Source of the DNA: Alphaproteobacteria bacterium
GTDB taxonomy: Bacteria > Pseudomonadota > Alphaproteobacteria > Bin95
DNA: 64,000 nucleotides
Assembly: GCA_965205265.1 (NCBI GenBank)
Contig: CBDBGH010000003.1
Location: 5,088,001 to 5,152,000 of the forward strand
Direction: 5' to 3'
The stretch's first letter is position 1; the number at the start of each line of letters is the position of its first letter. This document shows positions 14,517-59,946 of the stretch, piece by piece. Made by a program: the position numbers and the translations under genes. The notes beneath the pieces are model-generated. The model saw only the letters and a list, made by a program, of their open reading frames with translations, had not been told where the DNA came from and did no database searches.

Positions 14517-14767
14517 CTACGGGCGGAAATCCTCCTCGGCCTCCTCCGGGTCGCCCCACTCCTCAAGCCAGAACGGCTCCATGATGTCGACCATGACAGC
14601 GACTTCCTCGCCCGCGACCCCGTCTCCTCATCGAATAGATAGATGCCGAAGGTCTGGTGCGCGCAGAACTTGCGTCCACCGCTCTCGACCTCGGCAATCG
14701 CCCCATCCAGGGTCGTCGCCTCCAGAGGCACCTCGAGTCCGTTTCCGGTGGCGATATATCTGGTCAT
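14517..14767 (-). pseudogene. Small acidic hypothetical protein, apparently frameshifted
   Basis: MTRYIATGNG...YLFDEETG continues plausibly in another frame as EEVAVMVDIMEPFWLEEWGD...RP*. Confidence 0.4.
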
Positions 14768-19298: not shown

Positions 19299-19637
19299 AT
19301 GAGCGACACAGCCAACATCCTGTTCGCCGCCGCGGACCTGGTTGACCGGGGCTGGACCCAAAAAGCCTACGCTGTCGGCAGTGACGGGCGGTCCGTTGTT
19401 CCGGATGGCCCCTTGGCCAGAAAATGGAACGTCATCGGTGCTATCGCCGCGGCGGCCGGGCGATTTCACCGTGGCGCGGAACTCGCCTTGACGAACCATC
19501 TGGATGTTTGGGAACTGGAACTCTGGAACAACGAGCCCGGCCGCACGCAGGCGGAGGTGAGCGCCGCGCTCCGGGAGTGTGCGTTCCTCCTCCGGGGCGA
19601 CGGCGCCCCGGCCTCATCGAGGTTCGCGAGCGCATGA
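19299..19637 (+). CDS. DUF6197-like hypothetical protein
   Basis: RGWTQ...W.VIGAI...WNNEPGRTQAEV; ATGA-coupled to parE. Confidence 0.75.
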   Translation: MSDTANILFAAADLVDRGWTQKAYAVGSDGRSVVPDGPLARKWNVIGAIAAAAGRFHRGAELALTNHLDVWELELWNNEPGRTQAEVSAALRECAFLLRGDGAPASSRFASA

Positions 19638-31269: not shown

Positions 31270-31355
31270 TTTAAATGGGTGCACGTCCTGATTTTGCGAG
31301 GTTGAGAAATGCCATGGTTCCGCCACGATATCTGTTTCTTATATTCGGGGGGCAG

Positions 31356-31787
31356 ATGGAGGCGGACATGGCCAGGACCGATCACGACGGCCTCGTCGAA
31401 CAGCGTGGCGAGCTGCTGCGGGAGATTGCGGGCATCGGCGACCTCCGTCAGGGTTCGCTCAGGGCACAGTACCGCAAGTGCGGCAAACCGAACTGCCATT
31501 GCGCGGTCGAGGGGGCGCAGGGGCATGGCCCCTACTGGTTGTTGACCTGGCCGGACAGGGAGACGGGGAAGTCCCGCGGCCGCACCGTTCCCGCCGACGC
31601 CATTGAGGGAACGCGGGCGCAGATCGCGGAATACCAGCGGCTTCGCGGTCTGGTGCGCGCGCTTGTCGAGGTCAGCGGCCGGATATGCGATGCCAGGCTG
31701 GACGCGGACAAGCCGGCCGCGCCGGGAAAAAGGGGGGTCTCGACGCAGCGATCGCGGAGGAGGTCGAGGCCGAGGTCGAGTGGCTGA
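31356..31787 (+). CDS. IS orfA (DUF6788-like)
   Basis: GSLRAQYRKCGKPNCHC...HGPYWLLT. Confidence 0.8.
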   Translation: MEADMARTDHDGLVEQRGELLREIAGIGDLRQGSLRAQYRKCGKPNCHCAVEGAQGHGPYWLLTWPDRETGKSRGRTVPADAIEGTRAQIAEYQRLRGLVRALVEVSGRICDARLDADKPAAPGKRGVSTQRSRRRSRPRSSG

Positions 31788-33067
31788 TCGGCGCGGGCGT
31801 CGTCGATGACTTCCAGGCGATCGAGATCGAAGCGCGGCGGGTTGCGTTGCAGATCATGGGGCAGGCCGTCGCCCACAGGCTCAATGCCGACCGTTCCGAC
31901 AACCGGGGACCGTGGCTGTCGTGTGCGTGCGGCGGCGAGGCGCGCTTCGCCGGCCGCCGGCCCAAGACCTTCACCACCGCTCTCGGCCCTCTGACGCTGG
32001 AGCGCGCCTGGTATCACTGCGACCGTTGCCACCGCGGCTTCAGCCCGCGTGATCGAACCCTCGGCATGGAAGATACTTTCCTCTCACCGGCGGCGCTGCG
32101 CATGATCGGCGTTGCTGCTGCCCGTACCAGCTTCGAGGGCTCCAGCGCCCTGTTGCGCGAACTGGCAGGCCTGGCTGTCGCGCCGAAGACGGTCGAACGC
32201 CATGCCGAGGCGCTCGGGCGAGAGATCGCAGGCGACGAATGCCGCGTGATCGAACCCGAGCCGTCCGACGCCCCCACCCTCTATCTCGGCCTCGACGGCA
32301 CCGGCGTGCCGGCGCGCAAGACCGAGGTCGAGGGCCGCGCGGGCAAGCAGCCCGACGGCTCCGCCAGCACCCGCGAGGCCAAGCTCGCCGTCGTGTGGTC
32401 GGCGGAGACCGTCGACAGGGAGGGGCGTCCGGTGCGCGATCCCGGCTCCGCCACCTACAACGCCGCCATCGAATCCATCGCCACCCGCGAGTTCGACCCC
32501 GAGCCCGCGCCCTTCGCCCGGCGTGTCATCCGCGAGGCCGAACGCCGCGGCTTCGACACGGCCGAGCGCCGGGTCATCCTCGGCGACGGCGCGCCGTGGA
32601 TCTGGAACTTCGCCGATGAGCACTTCCCCGACGCCATCCAGATCGTCGACATCTTCCATGCCAAGGGCCACCTGTTCGACGCAGCCAAGGCGATCTACGG
32701 GATCGGCAGCGAGATCGGTGAGCGATGGGCCGGGAAGCGGCGCGAGGAACTCGACGAGGGCCGCGTCGACGAGGTGATCGCCGCCCTCAAGGGCCATGCC
32801 GAAACTTGCGAGAACGCCCGGAAGAACGCCGAGTACTTCTCCAACAACCGCGAGCGCATGAACTACCCGAAGTTCCGCGCGATGGGCTTGTGCGTGGCCA
32901 GCGGCGTGGTCGAGGGCGGCTGCAAGAACATCGTCGGCGCCCGCCTCAAGCAGGGAGGTATGCGCTGGACCGTCAACGGCGCCAACGCCATCATCGCCCT
33001 GCGCTGCGCCGTCGAGAGCAATCGCTTCGACGACTTCTGGGAACGACGAGCCGGCGCAATACCATGA
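31685..33067 (+). CDS. ISKra4-family transposase, probably expressed by frameshift
   Basis: LDGTGVP, LGDGAPWIW, DIFHA, SGVVEGGCK. Confidence 0.88.
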   Translation: MRCQAGRGQAGRAGKKGGLDAAIAEEVEAEVEWLIGAGVVDDFQAIEIEARRVALQIMGQAVAHRLNADRSDNRGPWLSCACGGEARFAGRRPKTFTTALGPLTLERAWYHCDRCHRGFSPRDRTLGMEDTFLSPAALRMIGVAAARTSFEGSSALLRELAGLAVAPKTVERHAEALGREIAGDECRVIEPEPSDAPTLYLGLDGTGVPARKTEVEGRAGKQPDGSASTREAKLAVVWSAETVDREGRPVRDPGSATYNAAIESIATREFDPEPAPFARRVIREAERRGFDTAERRVILGDGAPWIWNFADEHFPDAIQIVDIFHAKGHLFDAAKAIYGIGSEIGERWAGKRREELDEGRVDEVIAALKGHAETCENARKNAEYFSNNRERMNYPKFRAMGLCVASGVVEGGCKNIVGARLKQGGMRWTVNGANAIIALRCAVESNRFDDFWERRAGAIP

Positions 33068-33161
33068 ATCTCACAAATACGACGTGCACCCGCTTTAAAT
33101 GCCCGGTTCCTGCCCTCACATCGTTTTGGCCTGTTCCACCCGCAGCGAATTGCAGACCTCC

Positions 33162-35309: not shown

Positions 35310-36071
35310 CTGACGGTGATTTGTCCCTTCTCGATTTGCTACATTAAGCCGGAGATCGCTGCGAGCGGGGCGCGGGCTGCGGATTGCGGCTCCTTCTCGA
35401 TTTGCTACATTCGACGGCATAGCCGGGCCCGAGTACAGGCTGCTGCGGATTGCGGCTCCTTCTCGATTTGCTACATTCTGCTGGCGGAAGCCCGGACCGC
35501 AATGGTCGCTGCGGATTGCGGCTCCTTCTCGATTTGCTACATTGAGCCGCGCCGGCGTGGCGCGCCGGCGGCGGCTGCGGATTGCGGCTCCTTCTCGATT
35601 TGCTACATTGCAGGGATCCCTCTTTCCGACCAGCGGCCAGCTGCGGATTGCGGCTCCTTCTCGATTTGCTACATTCGCCGCCCGCTCGGTTTCCTCGATA
35701 GTCGAGCTGCGGATTGCGGCTCCTTCTCGATTTGCTACATTGCGGGCCCACAGGCTACCCACGGCCCGTTAGCTGCGGATTGCGGCTCCTTCTCGATTTG
35801 CTACATTGTCGCTGGTTGAGGCTGCGAAGCAACTTGGGCTGCGGATTGCGGCTCCTTCTCGATTTGCTACATTGCCGCCGTCCGGAACGCCGCGAACGCG
35901 CCGGCTGCGGATTGCGGCTCCTTCTCGATTTGCTACATTCTGCTGGCGGAAGCCCGGACCGCAATGGTCGCTGCGGATTGCGGCTCCTTCTCGATTTGCT
36001 ACATTGGAGCCGGTGGTCGCGAACACGGCGGTAGCGCTGCGGATTGCGGCTCCTTCTCGATTTGCTACATT
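35310..36071 (+). CRISPR. Type II-C CRISPR array: 11 repeats plus 1 degenerate, 11 spacers of 30 bp
   Basis: 36-bp repeat GCTGCGGATTGCGGCTCCTTCTCGATTTGCTACATT, 66-bp period; orientation from tracrRNA complementarity. Confidence 0.98.
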
Positions 36072-37492: not shown

Positions 37493-37516
37493 GGGTGCAC
37501 GTCGCATTTGTGAGAT

Positions 37517-38899
37517 TCATGGTATTGCGCCGGCTCGTCGTTCCCAGAAGTCGTCGAAGCGATTGCTCTCGACGGCGCAGCGCAGGGCGATGATGGCGTT
37601 GGCGCCGTTGACGGTCCAGCGCATGCCTCCCTGCTTGAGGCGGGCGCCGACGATGTTCTTGCAGCCGCCCTCGACCACGCCGCTGGCCACGCACAAGCCC
37701 ATCGCGCGGAACTTCGGGTAGTTCATGCGCTCGCGGTTGTTGGTGAAATACTCGGCGTTCTTGCGGGCGTTCTCGCAAGTTTCGGCATGGCCCTTGAGGG
37801 CGGCGATCACCTCGTCGACGCGGCCCTCGTCGAGTTCCTCGCGCCGCTTCCCGGCCCATCGCTCACCGATCTCGCTGCCGGTCCCGTAGATCGCCTTGGC
37901 TGCGTCGAACAGGTGGCCCTTGGCATGGAAGATGTCGACGATCTGGATGGCGTCGGGGAAGTGCTCATCGGCGAAGTTCCAGATCCACGGCGCGCCGTCG
38001 CCGAGGATGACCCGGCGCTCGGCCGTGTCGAAGCCGCGGCGTTCGGCCTCGCGGATGACACGCCGGGCGAAGGGCGCGGGCTCGGGGTCGAACTCGCGGG
38101 TGGCGATGGATTCGATGGCGGCGTTGTAGGTGGCGGAGCCGGGGTCGCGCACCGGACGCCCCTCCCTGTCGACGGTCTCCGCCGACCACACGACGGCGAG
38201 CTTGGCCTCGCGGGTGCTGGCGGAGCCGTCGGGCTGCTTGCCCGCGCGGCCCTCGACCTCGGTCTTGCGCGCCGGCACGCCGGTGCCGTCGAGGCCGAGA
38301 TAGAGGGTGGGGGCGTCGGACGGCTCGGGTTCGATCACGCGGCATTCGTCGCCTGCGATCTCTCGCCCGAGCGCCTCGGCATGGCGTTCGACCGTCTTCG
38401 GCGCGACAGCCAGGCCTGCCAGTTCGCGCAACAGGGCGCTGGAGCCCTCGAAGCTGGTACGGGCAGCAGCAACGCCGATCATGCGCAGCGCCGCCGGTGA
38501 GAGGAAAGTATCTTGCATGCCGAGGGTTCGATCACGCGGGCTGAAGCCGCGGTGGCAACGGTCGCAGTGATACCAGGCGCGCTCCAGCGTCAGAGGGCCG
38601 AGAGCGGTGGTGAAGGTCTTGGGCCGGCGGCCGGCGAAGCGCGCCTCGCCGCCGCACGCACACGACAGCCACGGTCCCCGGTTGTCGGAACGGTCGGCAT
38701 TGAGCCTGTGGGCGACGGCCTGCCCCATGATCTGCAACGCAACCCGCCGCGCTTCGATCTCGATCGCCTGGAAGTCATCGACGACGCCCGCGCCGATCAG
38801 CCACTCGACCTCGGCCTCGACCTCCTCCGCGATCGCTGCGTCGAGACCCCCCTTTTTCCCGGCGCGGCCGGCTTGTCCGCGTCCAGCCTGGCATCGCAT
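37517..38899 (-). CDS. ISKra4-family transposase
   Basis: Differs from copy 1 by only a few residues. Confidence 0.88.
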   Translation of the reverse strand: MRCQAGRGQAGRAGKKGGLDAAIAEEVEAEVEWLIGAGVVDDFQAIEIEARRVALQIMGQAVAHRLNADRSDNRGPWLSCACGGEARFAGRRPKTFTTALGPLTLERAWYHCDRCHRGFSPRDRTLGMQDTFLSPAALRMIGVAAARTSFEGSSALLRELAGLAVAPKTVERHAEALGREIAGDECRVIEPEPSDAPTLYLGLDGTGVPARKTEVEGRAGKQPDGSASTREAKLAVVWSAETVDREGRPVRDPGSATYNAAIESIATREFDPEPAPFARRVIREAERRGFDTAERRVILGDGAPWIWNFADEHFPDAIQIVDIFHAKGHLFDAAKAIYGTGSEIGERWAGKRREELDEGRVDEVIAALKGHAETCENARKNAEYFTNNRERMNYPKFRAMGLCVASGVVEGGCKNIVGARLKQGGMRWTVNGANAIIALRCAVESNRFDDFWERRAGAIP

Positions 38900-39228
38900 A
38901 TCCGGCCGCTGACCTCGACAAGCGCGCGCACCAGACCGCGAAGCCGCTGGTATTCCGCGATCTGCGCCCGCGTTCCCTCAATGGCGTCGGCGGGAACGGT
39001 GCGGCCGCGGGACTTCCCTGTCTCCCTGTCCGGCCAAGTCAACAACCAGTAGGGGCCATGCCCCTGCGCCCCCTCGACCGCGCAATGGCAGTTCGGTTTG
39101 CCGCACTTGCGGTACTGTGCCCTGAGCGAACCCTGACGGAGGTCGCCGATGCCCGCAATCTCCCGCAGCAGCTCGCCACGCTGTTCGACGAGGCCGTCGT
39201 GATCGGTCCTGGCCATGTCCGCCTCCAT
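38797..39228 (-). CDS. IS orfA (DUF6788-like)
   Basis: Same as copy 1 orfA. Confidence 0.8.
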   Translation of the reverse strand: MEADMARTDHDGLVEQRGELLREIAGIGDLRQGSLRAQYRKCGKPNCHCAVEGAQGHGPYWLLTWPDRETGKSRGRTVPADAIEGTRAQIAEYQRLRGLVRALVEVSGRICDARLDADKPAAPGKRGVSTQRSRRRSRPRSSG

Positions 39229-39292
39229 CTGCCCCCCGAATATAAGAAACAGATATCGTGGCGAAACCATGGCATTTCTCAACCTCGCAAAA

Positions 39293-42200
39293 TCAGGACG
39301 TGCACCCTTTCTTGGGAGACCTATTCATGAACCCGCCAAAGCGAGGCTCGAAATTTTCTCGCTTGCCATCCATTTGCAGCCTACTCGCCTCAGTTGCAGT
39401 TGTAGGACGTGCGTCAGTGACTCTTGCAAGCACTGGGCGGCCCGAAGACTTGATGCCATGAACCACCCATATTCCTGACTCTTCTCCTCCCTGTAATTCA
39501 ACGGTGTCCCCCGGTGCGAGCGACATAATAAAGGTCGAATTGTCTCCCCGGTCCCGCTGCACTACCGCTAATCCCTTTGCTAAGCGTTGTAATGCTTCGA
39601 TGAGACTGACCACTTGTCGATCCGGGCGGCCATTGGACTTGCGGTAAATCGCCATATGGTGGTTGTTCGCTCGATCGGCATAGCCTGTGGAGGCCGGTGC
39701 CATAAGGTCAATCTGTTGCTTTTTTCTCACGCGTACTTTCCGGATTTCTGGTCCTTTTCGTCCCCGCTTCGGGTAGCCATTGATAAATGCTCTTTTTGGA
39801 TTGCCACCATGATCTGTTATCCACTTGTGAACAATCTCTTGCACGCCGTTATCCACTATATCGATTACCCTTGACCCGTTGGATTGCTCGTTTTCGGACA
39901 TCGTCAAGTCTTCGACCTTCTTGCGGGTAACGAAATGACGATAGATTGTGCCGTCTTTCCCCGTTTCATCCACTCGCGTATCGCCGTAGATCGTCTCCTT
40001 GTGCAGAGGGCCCGAGATTTTCTTGCGGACACGGTGGGAGACGACGATTTCCGCGACCGCGCGTTCTGCATCGGCGCGGATCGAGGGCCAGGGTTGCGGG
40101 AGCGGTGGTGGGTCCGGGACGTGGCGCTCGTCCTCGGCCTGCCAATAGCGGGAGAGCCGGTTCGTCATGCCGGAATGAGCGCAGGCCACAACCAGCGCAT
40201 CAACCGCATGGTGGCGGTGGTCCGCGCGGGTTTTCTCGCCGTCGTCGGAGAGGATGTTGTTCAACCCCCAGAGCCGGCGGAGATGCCCGGTTACGCGCCC
40301 GGTCACCGCCTGCACGGTCACCGGCGCTTCCGGCCCGACATCCGGCCACAGCCGTTTCAGGAAGGCGACGGTCTCGCGCGCCGCATATCCGGTGTCGTTC
40401 AACTGTCGGTCGGCGAAACCCTCCGGGATTTCCCTGGCCGCAAACCGCCTGATCTTGCGCGGCGACATACCGGTCTTCCCCATGCCATCCAGCCGCTCAA
40501 GAACAGCCGACCAGCGGTCGACATCCTCGTGCAGATATTCGTAGGGCGTCCGGTTCCCCTTCTTCTCGTTCTCATCCACCCGGCAGAGAGTCTTGTTCCC
40601 GTAGCTGTTGTCGAGAGAACGGGACCTCGGCCATATGTGCTCGACATCGAAGCGCCGGGACCGACCGAACAGGTCGTCGAAGCAGATAAGGTCTCCCGTA
40701 TAGGGGCACTGCTTTCCGCACTCCTGCCAAAGAAGCCACTTTTCGATGTCGCGGCGCGAAGGATTGATAAGCCCGTTTTCCTCAAGGTGCGCCTTCGCCT
40801 TCCTGCGTTGCCCGTCCTGCCGGCGGATCGCTGCGCTGTATTCCTCCCGGTCGCGCTTCGACCGGCCGACATCGCGCGTAAGCTCCACCCGGATCAGGTC
40901 CGGCTTGCCGAACATGCCGATCAGATTGTTCACCACCTTGCGCAACTCGTTGCGGGTCCGCGCTACAGTCGGGTTTCGCAGGGCTGCAGTGCGTTTCCCT
41001 TCCTCCGGGTCCGCCGGGCTGGGCAGCCGGTCCAGCACTTCCCCGGTCGGTCCTTCCCGGTTTGGGAACGTCCTGTTCCGCCAAGCCACCCATTCGGGTT
41101 CGAGACTGTTGAGGAGGGCGCCGAAGCGCACCCCCTCTTCCAGACGCGGCAGCACGGCTTGCAGGGCCTCGACCGAGAACGGCTCCCAACCCGTCGGCAG
41201 CTTGAGCGCCGCCAAATTGCGAGCCTGCGCTTCTGTGACGCCGAAATCGCGGATGAACTCTTGCGTCGCAGCCTCGCGGTCGTCCCTGCGCTCCCTGGCA
41301 GGCCGGATTACCACCCGGTCTCCGATTTCGCCGTAATCGGCATTTCTTAATCTGGCAGGGACATTGTCACGGATAGCCTGCCGGTGCGGATGGCTGTTCC
41401 ACTCGTCGCCGAAAATGCCCTTTAGCTTCGCCTCGACCGCGTTGCCGAGCAGGTTCCTGTCGCCGCCGACTTCCAGATTGAAACGCAGGCGTTTTTCCGC
41501 TCCCGGTTCGCCGCGCTTCTTGAAGAGCGGCGCGAGAGCACGGCGCACACCGGGCCATGTCATCGACGCCTGGGTTTGCAAGCGACCGAGAATCGCGGCG
41601 CGTTCGTCGGTGTCGAGAGGACGGCTGTTACCGCCGGCAATTTCGAGATTGTTGACCTTCTCCAGCATGCGCCGCTGCTGTGAAAGCCATGACCCTTTGG
41701 GGCAAAGCGTTGCGCCCGGCATCAGGCGGCATTCGCCGAGTGTGTTCTTGCGCCAGAACACGGGTCGTTGGGCGAACATCGCCTCCTGCACGGCGTTTTT
41801 CAATCCCGCTTCCCGCAGAACAGGCAGATGTTTTTGTTGCCCGGTCCAAATTGCATCGAATTCGTCTTCCACGATTCTCCGGGTTGCATGCTCGCCGCGT
41901 TTACGCTCGTGCTGGCCCCGTTCGGCCAGCCATGCCCCAAGCGTCCGGCCGGTCTGCTTCAACGCCTGTTCGGTTTTTCCCCGGCCCGTTCTCGCCTTCT
42001 TTTCGTCTGCGTCTTCGTCGTCCGGCGCTGCATCGTCGGAAACCTCTTCGATATCCCGCCCCTTGAAGTGCCGACGCTGCGCCAGATGGTAGAGCGCCCG
42101 GCCCAATTCGTGCGCCGCTAAAGCCTCGCCATCCACAGCCCTGCGGCGCAACTCATAAGGGTCGGTGCCGTCCATAAGGCATCGCCACGCATCGGAGCCG

Positions 42201-42463
42201 CGCGCCGGAAGCAGACCGGATTCCAGAAGAATGTCGCCCAGTGCCCGACGTCGTTTGCGCCTGCGGCGGAGCTGTCTGCGGCGCATGCGCGCTGCGCGCC
42301 GTTGCTGGTTAAGCGGTATGTGCTTCGGGTCCCGCGCTTCGGGAAAGATGCGCACGCCCATGCGCCGGATCGTGCCGGTCTCCCGATGAGCGTCGTGGTC
42401 GATGACGGTGAAGCCGATGGAGGTCGTGCCGATGTCGAAGCCGAAAATCAGAGTCATCAGCAT
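39293..42463 (-). CDS. cas9: Type II-C Cas9, C-terminally truncated by the IS
   Basis: RuvC-I FGFDIGTTSIG, Arg-rich bridge helix, HNH DVEHIWPRS..N.KTL, RHHAVDA; last 14 aa replaced by GCTS. Confidence 0.96.
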   Translation of the reverse strand: MLMTLIFGFDIGTTSIGFTVIDHDAHRETGTIRRMGVRIFPEARDPKHIPLNQQRRAARMRRRQLRRRRKRRRALGDILLESGLLPARGSDAWRCLMDGTDPYELRRRAVDGEALAAHELGRALYHLAQRRHFKGRDIEEVSDDAAPDDEDADEKKARTGRGKTEQALKQTGRTLGAWLAERGQHERKRGEHATRRIVEDEFDAIWTGQQKHLPVLREAGLKNAVQEAMFAQRPVFWRKNTLGECRLMPGATLCPKGSWLSQQRRMLEKVNNLEIAGGNSRPLDTDERAAILGRLQTQASMTWPGVRRALAPLFKKRGEPGAEKRLRFNLEVGGDRNLLGNAVEAKLKGIFGDEWNSHPHRQAIRDNVPARLRNADYGEIGDRVVIRPARERRDDREAATQEFIRDFGVTEAQARNLAALKLPTGWEPFSVEALQAVLPRLEEGVRFGALLNSLEPEWVAWRNRTFPNREGPTGEVLDRLPSPADPEEGKRTAALRNPTVARTRNELRKVVNNLIGMFGKPDLIRVELTRDVGRSKRDREEYSAAIRRQDGQRRKAKAHLEENGLINPSRRDIEKWLLWQECGKQCPYTGDLICFDDLFGRSRRFDVEHIWPRSRSLDNSYGNKTLCRVDENEKKGNRTPYEYLHEDVDRWSAVLERLDGMGKTGMSPRKIRRFAAREIPEGFADRQLNDTGYAARETVAFLKRLWPDVGPEAPVTVQAVTGRVTGHLRRLWGLNNILSDDGEKTRADHRHHAVDALVVACAHSGMTNRLSRYWQAEDERHVPDPPPLPQPWPSIRADAERAVAEIVVSHRVRKKISGPLHKETIYGDTRVDETGKDGTIYRHFVTRKKVEDLTMSENEQSNGSRVIDIVDNGVQEIVHKWITDHGGNPKRAFINGYPKRGRKGPEIRKVRVRKKQQIDLMAPASTGYADRANNHHMAIYRKSNGRPDRQVVSLIEALQRLAKGLAVVQRDRGDNSTFIMSLAPGDTVELQGGEESGIWVVHGIKSSGRPVLARVTDARPTTATEASRLQMDGKRENFEPRFGGFMNRSPKKGCTS

Positions 42464-46864: not shown

Positions 46865-47560
46865 TCAGCCGGCCCTTGCGTCCGCAGCTTCGTCCGCGTC
46901 CTGCCGGTGTTGCCGGGACGGCCGGTCCGCGTCGGCGGTGGGAAACCGCCGGCGGCTGCGGTCAGGCGGCGGGGCGACGGAGATCGTCGCGAAGGCGCAG
47001 ACGGCCAGTACCAGGCAGAACAGCCCGGTGATGGCGCGCGTGCCGAAGCCGGGAATGAGCACGAAAACCGTGACCAGCGTGCCGAGCACGTTACCCATGG
47101 TGGAGACCGCATAGACCGTGCCTGTCGTGCGTCCGCCGCGCTCGAGATCGGAGAGCAGGAGGCGTACGAAAAAGGGCGAGAGAGCGGCGAACAGAAATAC
47201 CGGCACGAAGGTGAGCGCCATGGCGGCCGTCATGGTTCCGGCGAACCCGAACCCGATAGCCGCCATGATGGCCTCCAGCGCCCGATCGGCAAAGAGCAGC
47301 ACGGCGAGCAGCCAGAGGCTGACGGCGCAGAGAATGAAGCAGATTACCGACAGATGCTGCGTGCGGTCGGCGAGGACGCCGCCGGCGGCATATCCGGCCG
47401 CCATCGCCAGAAGCACCACCGATATCAGGCAGGCCCAGCTGGTTATGCCGCCGCCGAACCAGGGGTTCAGGTAGCGGCTGCCGAGCATCTCGAAGCCCAT
47501 GAGGGCAAAGCCGCACAGAAAGATGAGGAGGAACAGGAACAGACGCATTGCCGTCGTCAT
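46865..47560 (-). CDS. Membrane subunit of the fused MFS/spermidine-synthase family
   Basis: EMLGSRYLNPWFGG..SW, GTVYAVSTMGNVLGT. Confidence 0.85.
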   Translation of the reverse strand: MTTAMRLFLFLLIFLCGFALMGFEMLGSRYLNPWFGGGITSWACLISVVLLAMAAGYAAGGVLADRTQHLSVICFILCAVSLWLLAVLLFADRALEAIMAAIGFGFAGTMTAAMALTFVPVFLFAALSPFFVRLLLSDLERGGRTTGTVYAVSTMGNVLGTLVTVFVLIPGFGTRAITGLFCLVLAVCAFATISVAPPPDRSRRRFPTADADRPSRQHRQDADEAADARAG

Positions 47561-48510
47561 TGCCGCGGCTCCGGGAGTGCCATCGGCTCCAGGCCGCGAT
47601 TGTGGCGCTCGGTCGCCCGCAGCAGCTCGACCGGGGCGAAGTCGTCGGTCAGCGGTCTCGTGTCCGGCAGCTGTTTCAGCGGTCTCGCCTCCCGGACCAT
47701 TTCGGCAAGCGGATAGCGGAACCCGTGGGCGGCGTCCAGGCGCCGGGCGCTGGCCAGCAGGGCCTCGAAGGACCGCCGGGGCCCTTCATAACCAACCATC
47801 ACGATATTGCCGTCGGCCTCGTAGAGATCGAGATGGTCGAATACCGAGGCCATGGTGGCGACGGCGGCGTCGAACATCATCGTCGAGGGCGCCACGTTCT
47901 GGACCGCGGCCCCGGCCGGCGCCAGTCGCGCCTTGACCAGCTCGTAGAATTCCTTCGTGAGAAGGTGGAACGGCACGGAGGGGCCCCTGTAGGCGTCGAT
48001 GGCGATGACCGGCCAGGTTTGGCCGTCGCGGCGCTGCAGCCAGCGCCGCCCGTCATCGATCTCGACCCGGAACCCCGGTTCCGGACGCACGCCGAAATGG
48101 AGCTTCGCGAGTTCGAACACTTCCGGGTCCAGTTCGACCGAGGTGATGTCCATGGCCGGAACCGAACGATGGAGATACCAGGTCGTTCGGCCGCCGCCGA
48201 AACCGATCTCGAGGAAGCGGTCGGTGTTCCCGGCATAGGCCAGGGCGGCGGTCATGTAGCGCGAGTAGGGCGAGGGCAGGGCGAGTTCGTCCCTGGTGTC
48301 GTATTCGGTCTCGGTGAACAGGTCGCGGTTGTGGCCGAAGGTCATCACGACCATCGGCCCCTGCCGGATGACATAGATGTCGTTGTACACGGATTCACGC
48401 CGGTCGATTACGTCGGGATGGATTGCGAACGACCTGACCTCCAGATACGCGAATGCGCCAAGGATGGCGATCAGGGTGAAGGATGCCGCGATGATCGGGA
48501 GTCTGGACAT
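47557..48510 (-). CDS. Spermidine-synthase-like SAM-dependent transferase
   Basis: EIGFGGG, VELDPEV, DDGR, IDAY...PFHLLTKEF. Confidence 0.88.
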   Translation of the reverse strand: MSRLPIIAASFTLIAILGAFAYLEVRSFAIHPDVIDRRESVYNDIYVIRQGPMVVMTFGHNRDLFTETEYDTRDELALPSPYSRYMTAALAYAGNTDRFLEIGFGGGRTTWYLHRSVPAMDITSVELDPEVFELAKLHFGVRPEPGFRVEIDDGRRWLQRRDGQTWPVIAIDAYRGPSVPFHLLTKEFYELVKARLAPAGAAVQNVAPSTMMFDAAVATMASVFDHLDLYEADGNIVMVGYEGPRRSFEALLASARRLDAAHGFRYPLAEMVREARPLKQLPDTRPLTDDFAPVELLRATERHNRGLEPMALPEPRQ

Positions 48511-49137
48511 GGGGGCGTTCCGCGACTCACGCCCGGCCGGCGGGAGCGGGGTGCTGGTCGTCATCGACGGGGTGCGGCACGGCACCTGCCCCGGGAGCAC
48601 GGTGCCGCCTTCATGCCATTGCGTCTATTTCTGCGCGGCTGGCTCCGACGGCCACGGAATGGCCGAATGATCCGGAGGCCGGGCCGCCAGACCGGGACGC
48701 ATGGCGGGCGTCAAGGGAAGACTTGGCACGAGCATGGCGCATTTCCTCGACTTCCTTCCAAGTCCGACGGCATGGCGTTATCATAATCGGATTGCCACGG
48801 CAATCAACAAAGGATAGAACCTCCATGAAATACGGTCTTGCGCAGGGGCTTGCGCGGCCGCATGATCGGAAACGGTTCGTCCTGCCGCGGATTCCGGTCG
48901 GTGGCGGACTCTCCTTGCCGGTGCCGGCCGCTGTTTGTCATTGTCGGGTTCGTCTGCCGTCGCTGTCGGAGCGTTCCGGATACAGCAGGCCAGGACATGT
49001 CCGTCGGTCCGGGACGAACACAGAACCTCCTGCGGATTTGTTCGTGACGGTCGCCGACGCCGTCCAACACGCGCGAGGGTTCGCGCGGGAGAGACAATTC
49101 GCAAGGCTCTCAAAACGGGTTGGCAAGGGGGGAGGGA

Positions 49138-49290
49138 CTCATCCCGTGCGCGGGCGCACATTGAAGGATCATCATCGCTCCTCGTTCCACGACCTCGACG
49201 ACGCTCATCCCGTGCGCGGGCGCCATTGAAGGTCGTTTCGAAGGGTTATGGCGCTCGCCGAAAGCCAGGGCCGCGTGCACACATTGAAGG
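49138..49290 (+). CRISPR. Orphan CRISPR-like mini-array: 2 repeats plus 1 degenerate, 2 spacers
   Basis: CTCATCCCGTGCGCGGGCGCACATTGAAGG at 49138-49167 and 49204-49232 (1-nt deletion); degenerate copy ends at 49290. Confidence 0.65.
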
Positions 49291-49514
49291 GACCTGATCG
49301 CCGGGACCTTGACGGGGCGAATTATGGGAAGCGCCTTCTTGCCCTCCCCATGCCGTGATCCGTTTCAGGGACGCTGCCATGACAGAGGCGACGGGCAGGA
49401 CCGTTGCCCTTCCTTCCTTTGAGACCATAAGCATCATCCTGGACCGCACTGACACCTGGGGGACTCCCCGGGACTCCCCGGGCTTGTGCGGCCACGATCT
49501 GCTGATTATAATGA

Positions 49515-49542
49515 CAATCCGATTGTTTCGGCAATCGGATGC
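49515..49542. promoter_or_regulatory. Tandem two-box motif upstream of the recQ operon
   Basis: CAATCCGATTG-TTTCGG-CAATCGGATGC. Confidence 0.6.
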
Positions 49543-49570
49543 CATCATGACCCTTACCCGGAACGGGTCG

Positions 49571-49876
49571 ATGTCAGGACAGCATTCCCGAAAACGCAGA
49601 CTCAGCTTGCGGCAGGTGTTCGAGACAGGGCCCAGGGGCCCGCTCTATGTCGGGACCTTCTTCAGTCCCTATGAGTTGAAAGCCGTCCGGGATTTCGGTC
49701 CCGTCTGCGTGATCGTGACCGGCGGTGGCGGCATCGAGCCCATGCGCTGGACCGCGGACTGGTCCGAGCCGGCGTTCCGGGACTATCGCGAGGCGGAACG
49801 CCGCGCGCGCAAGTCCGGTTGGGACGGCCGGCTCCGTCGCAGCGGCTCGGCCATCGGGGCGGGGCGGAACGCATGA
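49571..49876 (+). CDS. Hypothetical protein
   Basis: MSGQHSRKRR...; ATGA-coupled to recQ. Confidence 0.6.
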   Translation: MSGQHSRKRRLSLRQVFETGPRGPLYVGTFFSPYELKAVRDFGPVCVIVTGGGGIEPMRWTADWSEPAFRDYREAERRARKSGWDGRLRRSGSAIGAGRNA

Positions 49877-51714
49877 GCCCCAACGCGACCATGGATGACG
49901 CGCGCCGGATACTCCGGAGCGTCTTCGGCTTCGAGAGCTTCCGGCCGGGCCAGGAGGCCGTCATCGGGACGCTGCTCGCCGGGCGCAGCGTGTTGACGGT
50001 AATGCCCACGGGCTCGGGAAAGTCCCTCTGCTTCCAGATACCCGCTCTTCTTCTGGACGGCCTGACCGTCATAGTGTCGCCGCTGGTGGCATTGATGCAG
50101 GATCAGGTGGCGGCCCTGAACATGGCCGGAGCGCTGGCGGAGGCCATCCACTCGGGAAACGGACGCGAGGCCAATGTGGCCGCCTGGCGGCGTGTGGCCG
50201 CGGGCCGGGCAAGGCTGCTCTACATGGCGCCGGAGCGCCTGATGACCGAACGCATGCTGGAGGCGCTCGGGCGCCTTCCCGTGCGGATGTTCGTGGTCGA
50301 CGAAGCCCATTGCATGTCGCAATGGGGGCCCGCTTTCCGCCCCGAATATGCGGGTCTGGCGCGTCTGCGCGCGCTGTTCCCCATGGTCCCGGTCGCCGCC
50401 CTTACAGCGACCGCCGACGAGGTCACGCGCCGCGATATCGTGCAAACCCTGTTCGACGGGCGTGTCGAGGAGCATGTGCTCGGGTTCGATCGGCCCAATA
50501 TCTCCCTGGCGGTCGAGGCGAAGAAGGACTGGAAACGCCAGGTATCGGCCTTCGTGGACCGCCACAGGGGCGAGAGCGGTATCGTGTACTGCCTCTCCCG
50601 GCGCAAGACCGGGGAGACCGCCGCGATGCTCGCGCGCCAGGGCGTGCGCGCGCTCGCCTATCACGCCGGCATGCCGGCCGCGGAGCGCGAGGCCAACCAG
50701 AACATCTTCATGACGGAACCCGGCGTGGTGATGGCAGCGACCATCGCCTTCGGAATGGGCATCGACAAGGCGGATGTGCGTTTCGTGCTTCATGCCGACC
50801 TGCCGGGCAGCGTGGAAGCCTATTACCAGGAGATCGGGAGAGCCGGACGGGACGGGGCGCCTGCCGAGGCCCACATGCTCTACGGGCTGCCCGACATTCG
50901 CATGCGCCGGCAGTTCATCGAGCGCGAGGACGCCGGCGAGGACCGTCGCCGCCGCGAGACGGCCCGTCTCGATGCGCTGGTAGGCTATTGCGAGGCCCCG
51001 ACCTGCCGGCGCACGGTGCTGCTGTCCTGGTTCGGCGAACACAGCGTGGCCTGCGGCAACTGCGACGTATGCCGCGACCCGTCCGGGCTGGTGGAGGGGA
51101 CCGCCGAGGCCCGCACGATCATCCAGGCCGCGCTGCAGACCGGCAACCGGTTCGGTGCGGTTCACCTGATCGATGTCGTTCGCGGAGCCGGAACGGAGAA
51201 GGTTCGCAGGCTCGGCCATGACAACCGGGCCGTTTTCGGGACCGGGGCGCGGCGCGGCGCGGACAGCTGGCGTTCCGTGGTTAGGCAGATGGTGGCCGCC
51301 GGTCATCTCGACATCGACATCGCCGGACACGGAGGCATGACCGTCACGGAGTCGGGCATGGCGCTGCTGAACGGCGATGCCCGGTTCATGTTCCGGGAGG
51401 ACGGCGTCCTGGCGGCTCCCTCCGCCTCCCGGCCTCGGCGCGAGGGCCGGAAAGCGGCCGAGCAGGACCTCGACGATGCCGATGCTGCGCTGCTCGGCGC
51501 GCTGAAGAAACTGCGCCTGGAGATTGCCCGGGAGATGCGGAAACCTGCTTTCGTGGTGTTCCCGGACCGCAGCCTCATCGACATGGCGAGGCGCCGTCCC
51601 CGGACCCGGGAGGAATTCGCTCTCGTTTCCGGCGTGGGAGACGCCAAACTCAGGCGTTTCGCGGGACCGTTCCTCGCCGCCATCGACGAGGCCCTGACGC
51701 ACGCCCCGGACTGA
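49873..51714 (+). CDS. recQ: RecQ DNA helicase
   Basis: MPTGSGKSLC, DEAHCMSQWG, YYQEIGRAGRDG, Zn motif CGNCDVC, RQC and HRDC domains. Confidence 0.96.
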   Translation: MSPNATMDDARRILRSVFGFESFRPGQEAVIGTLLAGRSVLTVMPTGSGKSLCFQIPALLLDGLTVIVSPLVALMQDQVAALNMAGALAEAIHSGNGREANVAAWRRVAAGRARLLYMAPERLMTERMLEALGRLPVRMFVVDEAHCMSQWGPAFRPEYAGLARLRALFPMVPVAALTATADEVTRRDIVQTLFDGRVEEHVLGFDRPNISLAVEAKKDWKRQVSAFVDRHRGESGIVYCLSRRKTGETAAMLARQGVRALAYHAGMPAAEREANQNIFMTEPGVVMAATIAFGMGIDKADVRFVLHADLPGSVEAYYQEIGRAGRDGAPAEAHMLYGLPDIRMRRQFIEREDAGEDRRRRETARLDALVGYCEAPTCRRTVLLSWFGEHSVACGNCDVCRDPSGLVEGTAEARTIIQAALQTGNRFGAVHLIDVVRGAGTEKVRRLGHDNRAVFGTGARRGADSWRSVVRQMVAAGHLDIDIAGHGGMTVTESGMALLNGDARFMFREDGVLAAPSASRPRREGRKAAEQDLDDADAALLGALKKLRLEIAREMRKPAFVVFPDRSLIDMARRRPRTREEFALVSGVGDAKLRRFAGPFLAAIDEALTHAPD

Positions 51715-58626: not shown

Positions 58627-59946
58627 GTTGACATTGCCGTGTATCGTATCCAGTTCGGCCGCATGAGCGAGGTCTTCACGCACCGTCAGGTGGTATTCCG
58701 GCTTCTGCCGGGCCGCCGGTCCGTTTGGCGGCGTCTGGAGCGGGTTCTGGAGGCGCAGCGGCAGTTGTACAACGCCGCCCTTCAGGAACGCTGCGACGCC
58801 TGGCGTCTGGCCGGGCGGTCGCTCTCCTATATCGACCAGGCGAAGAGCCTGACGGTGTGCCGCCGGGAGGACCCCGAGATGGCGGCCGTTCCGGTCGCCG
58901 TGCAGCGCGGGACGCTGAAGCGCCTGGACGAGGCGATGAAGGGCTTCTTCCGGCGGGTGAAGGCGGGCCAGAAGCCGGGTTTTCCCCGGTTCCGGTCCCG
59001 CCGGCGGTTCGACAGCCTCTCCTTCGTCTCGGGGGTGAGGCTGGAGGACCGGGCCCGGCCCGGCGCGGACTGCGGGTCCGGCGCGGCCTGCCTGCGCCTT
59101 CCGGGTTTCGGCCCGCTTGCGGTCCGCCGGCGGGGCGGCAACCCGCATGGGGATGGCGAGCCGGTCTCGGCGGTGCTGAAGCGCGAGGCCGGCAAGTGGT
59201 ACGCCGTGGTCTGCTACCGGGTCCCGGCGCCGGCGGTCCACGAGGATGACGACAGCGTCATCGGGGTGGACATGAACGCTGGCCAGGTGGCGGCGAGCGG
59301 TCCGGGGCCGGAAGCCCGCCTGTTCCATGCCCCGGATACGCGGCGGCTGGAGGCGAGGGCGAAGCGCCTTGCCCGGCGTCTGGCGCGCCAGAAGCGCGGC
59401 TCCGGGCGCCGGGAGCGCACCCGCGCCCGTCTGGCGAAGACGAGGCGGCGCCTTTCCGGGATGCGGTGCGACTGGCGCCACCATGTCTCGCGGACAGTCG
59501 CCGACGCCGCCCATACCGTCGCCGTCGAGGACCTCCGGGTCCGGAACATGACGCGCAGCGCCCGGGGCACGACAGAGGAGCCGGGCGCCCGGGTCCGGCA
59601 GAAGGCCGGGCTCAACCGCGTCATCCTGGCCACGGGATGGGCGGAACTGCGCTTCATGTTCGGCTACAAGGCGGGACGGCTGCTCGCGGTCGACCCGGCC
59701 CATACCAGCCGGACCTGCGCCGCCTGCGGCCATGTCGATGCCGGCTCGCGGCGTTCGCGGGCCGAATTCCAGTGCACGGCCTGCGGCCATGCGGACCATG
59801 CCGACGCGAATGCCGGCAGCAACATCCGGCGTCGGGGACTGGCGCTGCTGCACGGGGAGGGGCGTTCCGGCTTGCGGACCCCTGCGATCCGTGAAAACGC
59901 AGGGATGCTGGCGGCATGACGCCGTCAACTCATCTTTGTAAGGCCC
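58610..59946 (+). mobile_element. Non-autonomous TIR element carrying only tnpB
   Basis: 23-bp TIRs (20/23 identical); 8-bp TSD AAACGTTC at 58602-58609 and 59947-59954. Confidence 0.85.
58663..59919 (+). CDS. tnpB: TnpB RNA-guided endonuclease
   Basis: RQLYNAALQER, GFPRFRS, IGVD, VEDL, TSRTCAACG..CTACG, ADANA. Confidence 0.95.
   Translation: MSEVFTHRQVVFRLLPGRRSVWRRLERVLEAQRQLYNAALQERCDAWRLAGRSLSYIDQAKSLTVCRREDPEMAAVPVAVQRGTLKRLDEAMKGFFRRVKAGQKPGFPRFRSRRRFDSLSFVSGVRLEDRARPGADCGSGAACLRLPGFGPLAVRRRGGNPHGDGEPVSAVLKREAGKWYAVVCYRVPAPAVHEDDDSVIGVDMNAGQVAASGPGPEARLFHAPDTRRLEARAKRLARRLARQKRGSGRRERTRARLAKTRRRLSGMRCDWRHHVSRTVADAAHTVAVEDLRVRNMTRSARGTTEEPGARVRQKAGLNRVILATGWAELRFMFGYKAGRLLAVDPAHTSRTCAACGHVDAGSRRSRAEFQCTACGHADHADANAGSNIRRRGLALLHGEGRSGLRTPAIRENAGMLAA

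Follow-up and report, generated by a model that had tools for sequence, protein, structure and literature searches.

Orphan, or isolated, CRISPR arrays are common and are either served in trans or decaying. Among type I-G systems, that of Thioalkalivibrio sulfidiphilus is the one studied biochemically: its Csb2 cleaves 4 nt beyond the 3' end of a 7-bp stem to give an 8-nt handle, binds the hairpin tightly and remains bound to it, and the PAM of the system is TTN (Shangguan et al., 2022, PMC9638904). Mini-arrays carried by viruses and mobile elements are reported to use host Cas proteins against rivals, with repeats identical to those of the host and most spacers matching related elements (PMC11656645).

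Here we describe a mini-array in a 64-kb stretch of DNA (the window, by which we mean the whole stretch that was analysed) from a CRISPR-rich genome of 5.7 Mb in three contigs. We regard the array as very likely to be of type I-G, and as probably a genuine I-G CRISPR mini-array, lying far from I-G cas genes and decaying. The features on which the argument turns are listed below in window positions.

39293–42463: II-C cas9, in the window together with cas1, cas2 and an array of its own
48780–48810, unstranded: box operator (TAATCGGATTG plus the half-site GGCAATC), overlapping a minus-strand sigma-70-like promoter that runs from 48807 to 48780
48830–49137, plus strand: leader-like non-coding stretch, recognized from the GC-by-phase plot, the leader alignment and the lack of a conserved ORF
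49138–49167, plus strand: repeat 1 (R1), 30 nt, consisting of 5' CTCAT, a 4-bp stem CCCG/CGGG with loop TGCG, a 5-nt linker and the 8-nt tag ATTGAAGG
49168–49203, plus strand: spacer 1, 36 nt, unique
49204–49232, plus strand: repeat 2 (R2), 29 nt, R1 minus one A in the linker
49233–49268, plus strand: nominal spacer 2, its 3' end uncertain because repeat 3 is without its 5' part
49255–49280, plus strand: 26 nt exactly identical to C3:4885155–4885180, on the coding strand of a 372-aa island ORF
49269–49290, plus strand: remnant of repeat 3 (R3), with linker and tag (CACATTGAAGG) retained and the stem gone
49505–49540, unstranded: second box (CAATCCGATTG plus GGCAATCGGAT), overlapping the region's best sigma-70-like match, TTGCCG-18-TATAAT

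A sequence-only reading of this DNA had proposed a 30-bp repeat, a 36-bp first spacer and progressive degeneration towards the 3' end, and all three were borne out. R1 and R2 share an exact core of 20 nt at a spacing of 66 nt, evident both in the sequence itself and to the repeat finder, while R3, which ends at 49290, retains roughly 19 nt from the 3' side of the repeat; the repeat finder scores R3 at 80% identity to R1 over 30 nt, with similarity extending a few bases downstream. None of the three units has lost any of the 8-nt tag. In the window, the octamer CATTGAAG is found three times, always on the plus strand and all within 131 nt; a count of three was reached in 14 of 100 shuffles and is ordinary, but the clustering is not. 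The duplication covers the 30-nt repeat alone and its flanks are not copied, so R1 and R2 did not arise by tandem duplication; they bear the signature of spacer integration, which copies one repeat. We infer that a single such event duplicated an already shortened repeat, which would explain two near-identical repeats around a unique 36-nt spacer beside an older, eroded third unit. At up to three mismatches, the sole match in the genome to the 25-nt core of the mini-array is the mini-array itself.

That the repeats arose by chance, or form part of a protein-coding gene, is scarcely credible and largely refuted. A 134-aa ORF (48825–49229) does read through R1, spacer 1 and R2, but the GC-by-codon-phase plot gives no coding signal between about 48650 and 49350, whereas the signal is clear for the minus-strand methyltransferase-like gene at 47557–48600 (third-position GC 0.75–0.95) and for the ORF preceding RecQ. 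No codon phase in this stretch attains the GC of the flanking genes, and the part upstream of the repeats had already been described as non-coding. The ORFs crossing the repeats are arginine-rich and look spurious. The 134-aa ORF finds matches in none of 16 same-genus genomes and three weak ones (E 0.002–0.006) among 60 other genomes; the 168-aa ORF that contains it in the same frame (48723–49229) has no Pfam match, and a search of Rfam over 48000–50000 returned five matches, all at chance level (E ≥ 0.59). Tag, geometry and leader are, moreover, common to arrays that lie beside cas genes.

The hairpin first reported for the repeat, with five pairs and the loop CGGG, exists. It excludes, and is excluded by, the 4-bp stem CCCG/CGGG with loop TGCG, which fits the geometry of the family better and, unlike the 5-bp stem, survives both the deletion in R2 and a T-to-C change in a related unit of genome G012. 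The linker between stem and tag measures 5 nt in R1 and 4 nt in R2; R3 has no stem. The tag ATTGAAGG is one base off both the tag of the host I-G array (ATTGAAGC) and that of the I-G array on the island described below (ATTGAAGT). The whole repeat resembles the 36-nt repeat of the island array at 5.059 Mb, from which it differs by a stem 3 bp shorter on each side, and with which it shares the CTC..CCC start. The host I-G repeat has a stem of 8 bp, unlike the hairpin of the mini-array, and the tag is the sole part that the two have in common. Tag and stem geometry are thus I-G-style, and the II-C repeat in the window is unrelated, in line with the earlier view that this is not a Cas9 array.

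The mini-array does not stand alone. Units of a GC-rich hairpin followed by (CA)CATTGAAG, spaced at about 75 nt, form eight further clusters between 4.94 and 5.32 Mb, giving at least eight further arrays with the CATTGAAG end on the same chromosome arm.

Scattered arrays (Mb): 4.943, 5.059, 5.227, 5.280, 5.293, 5.294–5.296, 5.308 and 5.318

The stems are array-specific and the tag is constant. Except for the 5.059-Mb array, the scattered arrays are without adjacent cas genes, none having been found among 11 flanking ORFs. Several measures point to real hairpins in these units. Fifty-one of them are, on average, more stably folded than 101 other CATTGAAG sites (−12.1 versus −8.0 kcal/mol; Mann–Whitney p 8e-9), and a perfect stem of at least 6 bp that ends 2–8 nt before the tag is found in 31 of 56 units but in just 19 of the 249 ATTGAAG sites outside them (Fisher p 1e-14). 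In an alignment of 19 units, 76% of cells pair, compared with 66% in shuffles (0 of 500 reach the observed value) and 41–55% with slid partners, and there are 15 double changes where 5.4 are expected. A covariance model was built from 19 units of four genomes, with the units of the mini-array left out. When it was run against the window, R1 (16.6 bits), R3 (15.3 bits) and R2 (14.8 bits) took ranks 2–4 of 41 at E 0.011–0.038 (R1 0.011), within 155 nt and on one strand; genome-wide, it returned 66 matches at E ≤ 0.01, the weakest at 23.8 bits and none at the mini-array. By anatomy and context the mini-array is thus a member of the family, though its most eroded one. Its stem runs to only 4 bp, or 5 bp if the repeat folds the other way; 31 of the 56 sister units have at least 6 bp.

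Kinship with I-G arrays extends in part to the leader. We aligned seven arrays over the 110–120 nt preceding the first repeat plus that repeat. The leader motif consists of ACCGCTCGAAAA, then a CCTTG...CAAGG hairpin, then GGGTT, and is common to five of the seven (host I-G, island I-G, and the arrays at 5.227, 5.280 and 5.295 Mb, the last three of which retain the I-G leader in full). In the mini-array, 49105–49116 (GGCTCTCAAAAC) is a shortened and altered version of the first motif, and the hairpin part is missing; CTCTCAAAACGGG, at 49107–49119, is the altered first part of the I-G leader motif. The region that had been called leader-like accordingly contains a truncated copy of a leader motif present at five other I-G-type arrays. 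A GAACC...GGTTC pair noted in the same stretch is present but just 5 bp long, and went unreported by the repeat finder, whose minimum length is 12. Promoter-like sites are less accommodating. A consensus scan of 48500–49700 gave two sigma-70-like matches, both on the minus strand and both overlapping boxes: that from 48807 to 48780 faces the methyltransferase-like gene at 47557–48600, and TTGCCG-18-TATAAT points leftward into the array from the right, antisense to it. As far as a consensus scan goes, sites confined to the minus strand count against transcription in the guide sense. The partial box that had been placed at 48784 is there (48784–48794 matches CAATCSGATTG with one mismatch); a box at 48785 was considered as a plus-strand promoter of the array and dropped, the scan having put both sites on the minus strand.

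Effectors that might serve the array are present elsewhere in the genome. Besides type I-C and type II-C arrays, the genome holds a host locus at 3.41 Mb, type I-G plus III-B with a 34-repeat array, and a second I-G set at 5.046–5.053 Mb (Cas3g, Cas8g2, Cas7g and Csb2) with a degenerate array 6 kb off. These are the only two Csb2 loci in the genome, both with Cas3g, Cas8g and Cas7g; Cas4/Cas1g occurs in the 3.41-Mb I-G set only, and none of the five cas1 genes in the genome is near the island I-G set. Host and island I-G arrays have 36-nt repeats and periods of 71–78 nt. The cas1-less island set, 84 kb upstream, provides the I-G cas genes nearest to the mini-array. The statement that there are no adjacent cas genes consequently holds for those of I-G type, none of which is near, but does not hold for type II-C, as cas9, cas1, cas2 and their own array, with an unrelated repeat, lie 6.7 kb upstream. 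Related repeats and I-G Cas genes were both found, and with them two compatible I-G effector sets, as the sequence-only reading had supposed might exist elsewhere in the genome.

The island Csb2 (C3:5045981–5048308, minus strand) is 775 aa long, and its C-terminus is a second match to the Cas6-like half of the protein's family model. Long forms of Csb2 (open frames of 728–739 aa) also occur in relatives G001, G009 and G015, which have Cas8g2 as well; among these long forms, the second Cas6-like match was seen in G015 only. In the II-C locus of the window, an insertion sequence (DUF6788 and UPF0236 ORFs) of 1818 nt is present in two inverted copies that are 99% identical (31274–33091 and 37493–39310). 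Between them lie the Cas9-type array, cas2 and cas1, and cas9 is bordered at its 3' end by the right copy. One spacer of the II-C array, at about 35544–35573, matches C3:4761995–4762024 at 30 of 30 positions, a perfect self-target elsewhere on the chromosome. It is one of two spacers, among the 164 of the uniform arrays, with a match off the arrays, the other being a host I-G spacer discussed below. A TnpB-type ORF at 58639–59919 (plus strand) combines OrfB_IS605 with a Cas12f-like TNB domain, and a truncated relative adjoins the 5.308-Mb array.

If the plus strand of the mini-array is transcribed, Csb2, a Cas5–Cas6 fusion, would be expected to bind the short stem and cut 4–5 nt downstream, releasing a guide in which the 36-nt spacer is preceded by the 5' tag AUUGAAGG. 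Such a guide would load into I-G Cascade encoded elsewhere, by either the cas1-less island set 84 kb upstream or the complete 3.41-Mb set, and the loaded Cascade would direct Cas3g to matching DNA. That the array still yields a working guide is doubtful, and we lean somewhat against its being active.

What such a guide would be aimed at is not apparent from the searches made. Spacer 1 has no target in its own genome (best ungapped match 25 of 36, against 23–24 in shuffles) and no match in 60 relatives; searches of plasmids gave 11 records, all at E ≥ 0.1, and of phages two records at E 0.5. Nor did the exact 36-mer occur in viral or metagenome contigs, a type of scan that diverged targets escape. 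For spacer 2, the best ungapped self-match is 24 of 36, with 23–24 in shuffles.

The regulatory RNAs CreR, CreA and Cracr suggest a different use, in which a crRNA-like RNA or a self-directed guide of partial complementarity would lead Cascade to bind a promoter or gene without cutting it. A mini-array with a degenerate last repeat resembles such elements (bioRxiv 10.1101/2024.10.29.618823), and the array lies between two box operators. The target would perhaps be the island gene with which the array shares 26 nt, a 372-aa ORF at C3:4884371–4885486, downstream of a box promoter on the same island. The identity is exact and sharp-edged; the genome contains the 26-mer only twice, no other site matches it at more than 21 of 26 positions, and BLAST gives E 9e-7 and 1.6e-5. 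However, it begins 22 nt past R2, in the last part of nominal spacer 2, and continues into R3, and so fits no spacer frame, and its flank in the ORF is CTG, not TTN. Tag-adjacent seeds from spacer 1, spacer 2 and the stretch after R3 match the cas loci over no more than 8–10 nt and never beside TTN, which is chance level and argues against a cas-repressing guide; the element is also 84 kb from the cas genes rather than beside them. The tests made lend a regulatory role no support, and we consider it quite improbable. The 26 nt may instead be a scar of recombination, or what is left of a self-derived spacer after the repeat beside it was lost. At the protein level, tblastn found no kinship of the 372-aa ORF to the array, and local alignment ends at the 26 nt; the 372-aa ORF, the small ORF at 49547–49876 and other neighbours matched no Pfam family, and the ORF at 49355–49876 has no paralogues.

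Comparison with related genomes bears on how such arrays persist. Across 60 relatives, the array region has no DNA match except for one of 31 nt, at 94%, to R1 in G012, where the matching unit belongs to a four-unit mini-array whose hairpin-plus-tag units are unlike one another and whose neighbouring genes are different ones. A 23-nt pattern of the repeat, run against one genome per species, hit two loci, the G012 record and a TPR-type gene of an unrelated MAG; the latter was judged a chance match and rejected as a relative of the repeat. A strict three-unit pattern found arrays in seven of 37 family genomes, all of the same genus. Most of these genus arrays are uniform and of host type; that of G010 is mixed, and that of G002 is uniform and ends in CATTGAAGG. 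Csb2 occurs in six of 17 genus genomes and was not found in G010 or G012 (99% and 100% complete), the carriers of similar mixed arrays. Mixed arrays in genomes where Csb2 was not detected suggest that such arrays can persist without an effector, which favours decay.

How far decay has gone is a separate matter. The array could be an inert relic: what was once an I-G array would by now be drifting, with neither guide-sense transcription nor processing. Its 4-bp stem, truncated leader and eroded third repeat are what one would look for in a relic, as are the sub-threshold family-model scores genome-wide, promoter-like sites on the opposite strand only, a spacer 1 that finds no target in the databases and genomes searched, and the similar arrays of G010 and G012. 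But R1 and R2 are one base apart, so that the duplication of the repeat is recent relative to the divergence of the sister units; three units retain an unbroken 8-nt tag, and the genome encodes two compatible effector sets. We hold the relic reading to be the less likely one, and prefer a genuine I-G mini-array in the course of decaying. Guides against rival elements, gene repression and an RNA anti-CRISPR had been put forward as possible functions for the locus, and we consider decay at least as likely as these three conjectures.

The setting of the array is mobile in appearance, as had been surmised. The window is rich in insertion sequences, genes of unknown type and plasmid- or phage-type families (DUF6197, DUF6878, DUF3991, a zeta-like kinase), and the box CAATCSGATTG matches seven times where 1.06 matches are expected, a number that none of 100 shuffles reaches.

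Palindromic boxes in the window: 2121, 6730, 6747, 13611, 31241, 48784 and 49515

Genome-wide, 30 of 39 copies of the strict box fall within 4.787–5.254 Mb (0.47 Mb), and an integrase gene adjoins the last of them. The boxes are usually tandem, spaced by about 17 nt, and overlap promoter-like hexamers; the box looks like the operator of an island-specific regulator. We read the array-bearing stretch as mobile, or formerly mobile, DNA. A VirB4-type conjugation ATPase (PF03135) had no match in the genome, leaving the idea of a conjugative island without support. Within the window, 14687–14722 agrees with a host I-G spacer (C3:3411449) at 33 of 36 positions; the mismatched spacer positions are 7, 13 and 17, and the flank is CTC rather than TTN. 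This near-match indicates that the island is, or was, a target.

An island so nearly matched might profit from repeat mimics that soak up host I-G proteins, and the array could in principle be an RNA anti-CRISPR or decoy of this kind. The 33-of-36 match supplies a motive, the tight and lasting hold of Csb2 on its hairpin a means, at least as described for Thioalkalivibrio (PMC9638904), and RNA anti-CRISPRs (Racrs), reported as repeat mimics, a precedent (PMC10651486). The hairpin of the mini-array, however, is unlike the 8-bp stem of the host repeat, with which only the tag is in common, and a spacer of normal length with a leader remnant is array-like, not the make-up of a solitary mimic. A much closer likeness to the host repeat, and a better decoy candidate, is found at 19586–19623. 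We rate an anti-CRISPR role for the mini-array as highly improbable.

This solitary look-alike of the host I-G repeat (plus strand) has stem arms and linker (TCCGGGGCG ... CGCCCCGGCCTCAT) identical to those of the 3.41-Mb repeat, with the tag altered to CATCGAGG, and is the top match to the family model in the window (16.7 bits). It lies within the last 17 codons of a DUF6197 ORF, past the Pfam domain (residues 3–95), and a gyrB-like gene follows directly; the near-match of the host I-G spacer is 4.9 kb away. The 14-nt arm-plus-linker has 33 copies in the host array and three elsewhere in the genome. Judged by its sequence, the element is a candidate repeat decoy.

A wider proposal takes these pieces together, with the mini-array as one part of an island-wide RNA toolkit on a box-regulated island of about 0.47 Mb that comprises the cas1-less I-G effector, the scattered arrays and the host-repeat look-alike. 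In such a scheme, at least eight scattered arrays with a common 8-nt tag (four also with the leader) and stems of their own would be read, across many stem variants, by the long Csb2 with its extra Cas6-like domain. Even without adaptation, the island could then retain older guides directed at rivals or, as the 26-nt identity might suggest, at genes of its own, and the look-alike would weaken the host I-G system, which comes close to targeting the island. We offer this as a speculative and unlikely scheme, and retain a decaying I-G mini-array as our preferred explanation of the locus itself.

The array alone adds little, but its setting may deserve attention: at least nine I-G-style arrays, differing in stem but alike in tag and partly in leader, occur on one chromosome arm, which also bears an I-G effector set lacking adaptation genes and comes close to being a target of the host's own I-G array. 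Should the scattered arrays prove to be processed, they would reveal how much latitude Csb2 allows in its hairpin, and by what means a mobile element can preserve its guides in the absence of Cas1; otherwise the locus would make a clean example of array decay after separation from cas genes.

Set against the described systems, the locus is closest in design to the I-G arrays of Thioalkalivibrio. Both have a palindromic repeat, an 8-nt 5' tag taken from the last 8 nt of the repeat, a stem that stops 4–5 nt short of the cut site and a spacer length near 36 nt, and Cas3g, Cas8g, Cas7g and Csb2 genes are present in this genome; the mini-array differs in a repeat of 30 rather than 36 nt, a stem of 4 rather than 7 bp, two to three units, a truncated leader and the lack of an adjacent cas gene (PMC9638904). 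With mobile-element mini-arrays it shares one or two spacers, a mobile-looking context and cas genes located elsewhere, but its repeat is identical to that of no array in the genome and no target of spacer 1 was found (PMC11656645). The order of degenerate repeat, spacer-like segment and degenerate repeat recalls CreR, CreA and Cracr, from which the array is set apart in that no cas or toxin promoter was found to match it partially beside a PAM and in that it does not lie beside cas genes (bioRxiv 10.1101/2024.10.29.618823). Like Racr, it would be a repeat-like RNA element on mobile DNA, but one with three units and a spacer, and without mimicry of the host hairpin (PMC10651486). As an orphan array it is typical in lying tens of kilobases from cas genes of its own type and in having a degenerate terminal repeat; it departs from that pattern in being one of at least nine scattered arrays with a common tag, a partly common leader and array-specific stems, all on one chromosome arm that also bears a cas1-less effector set.
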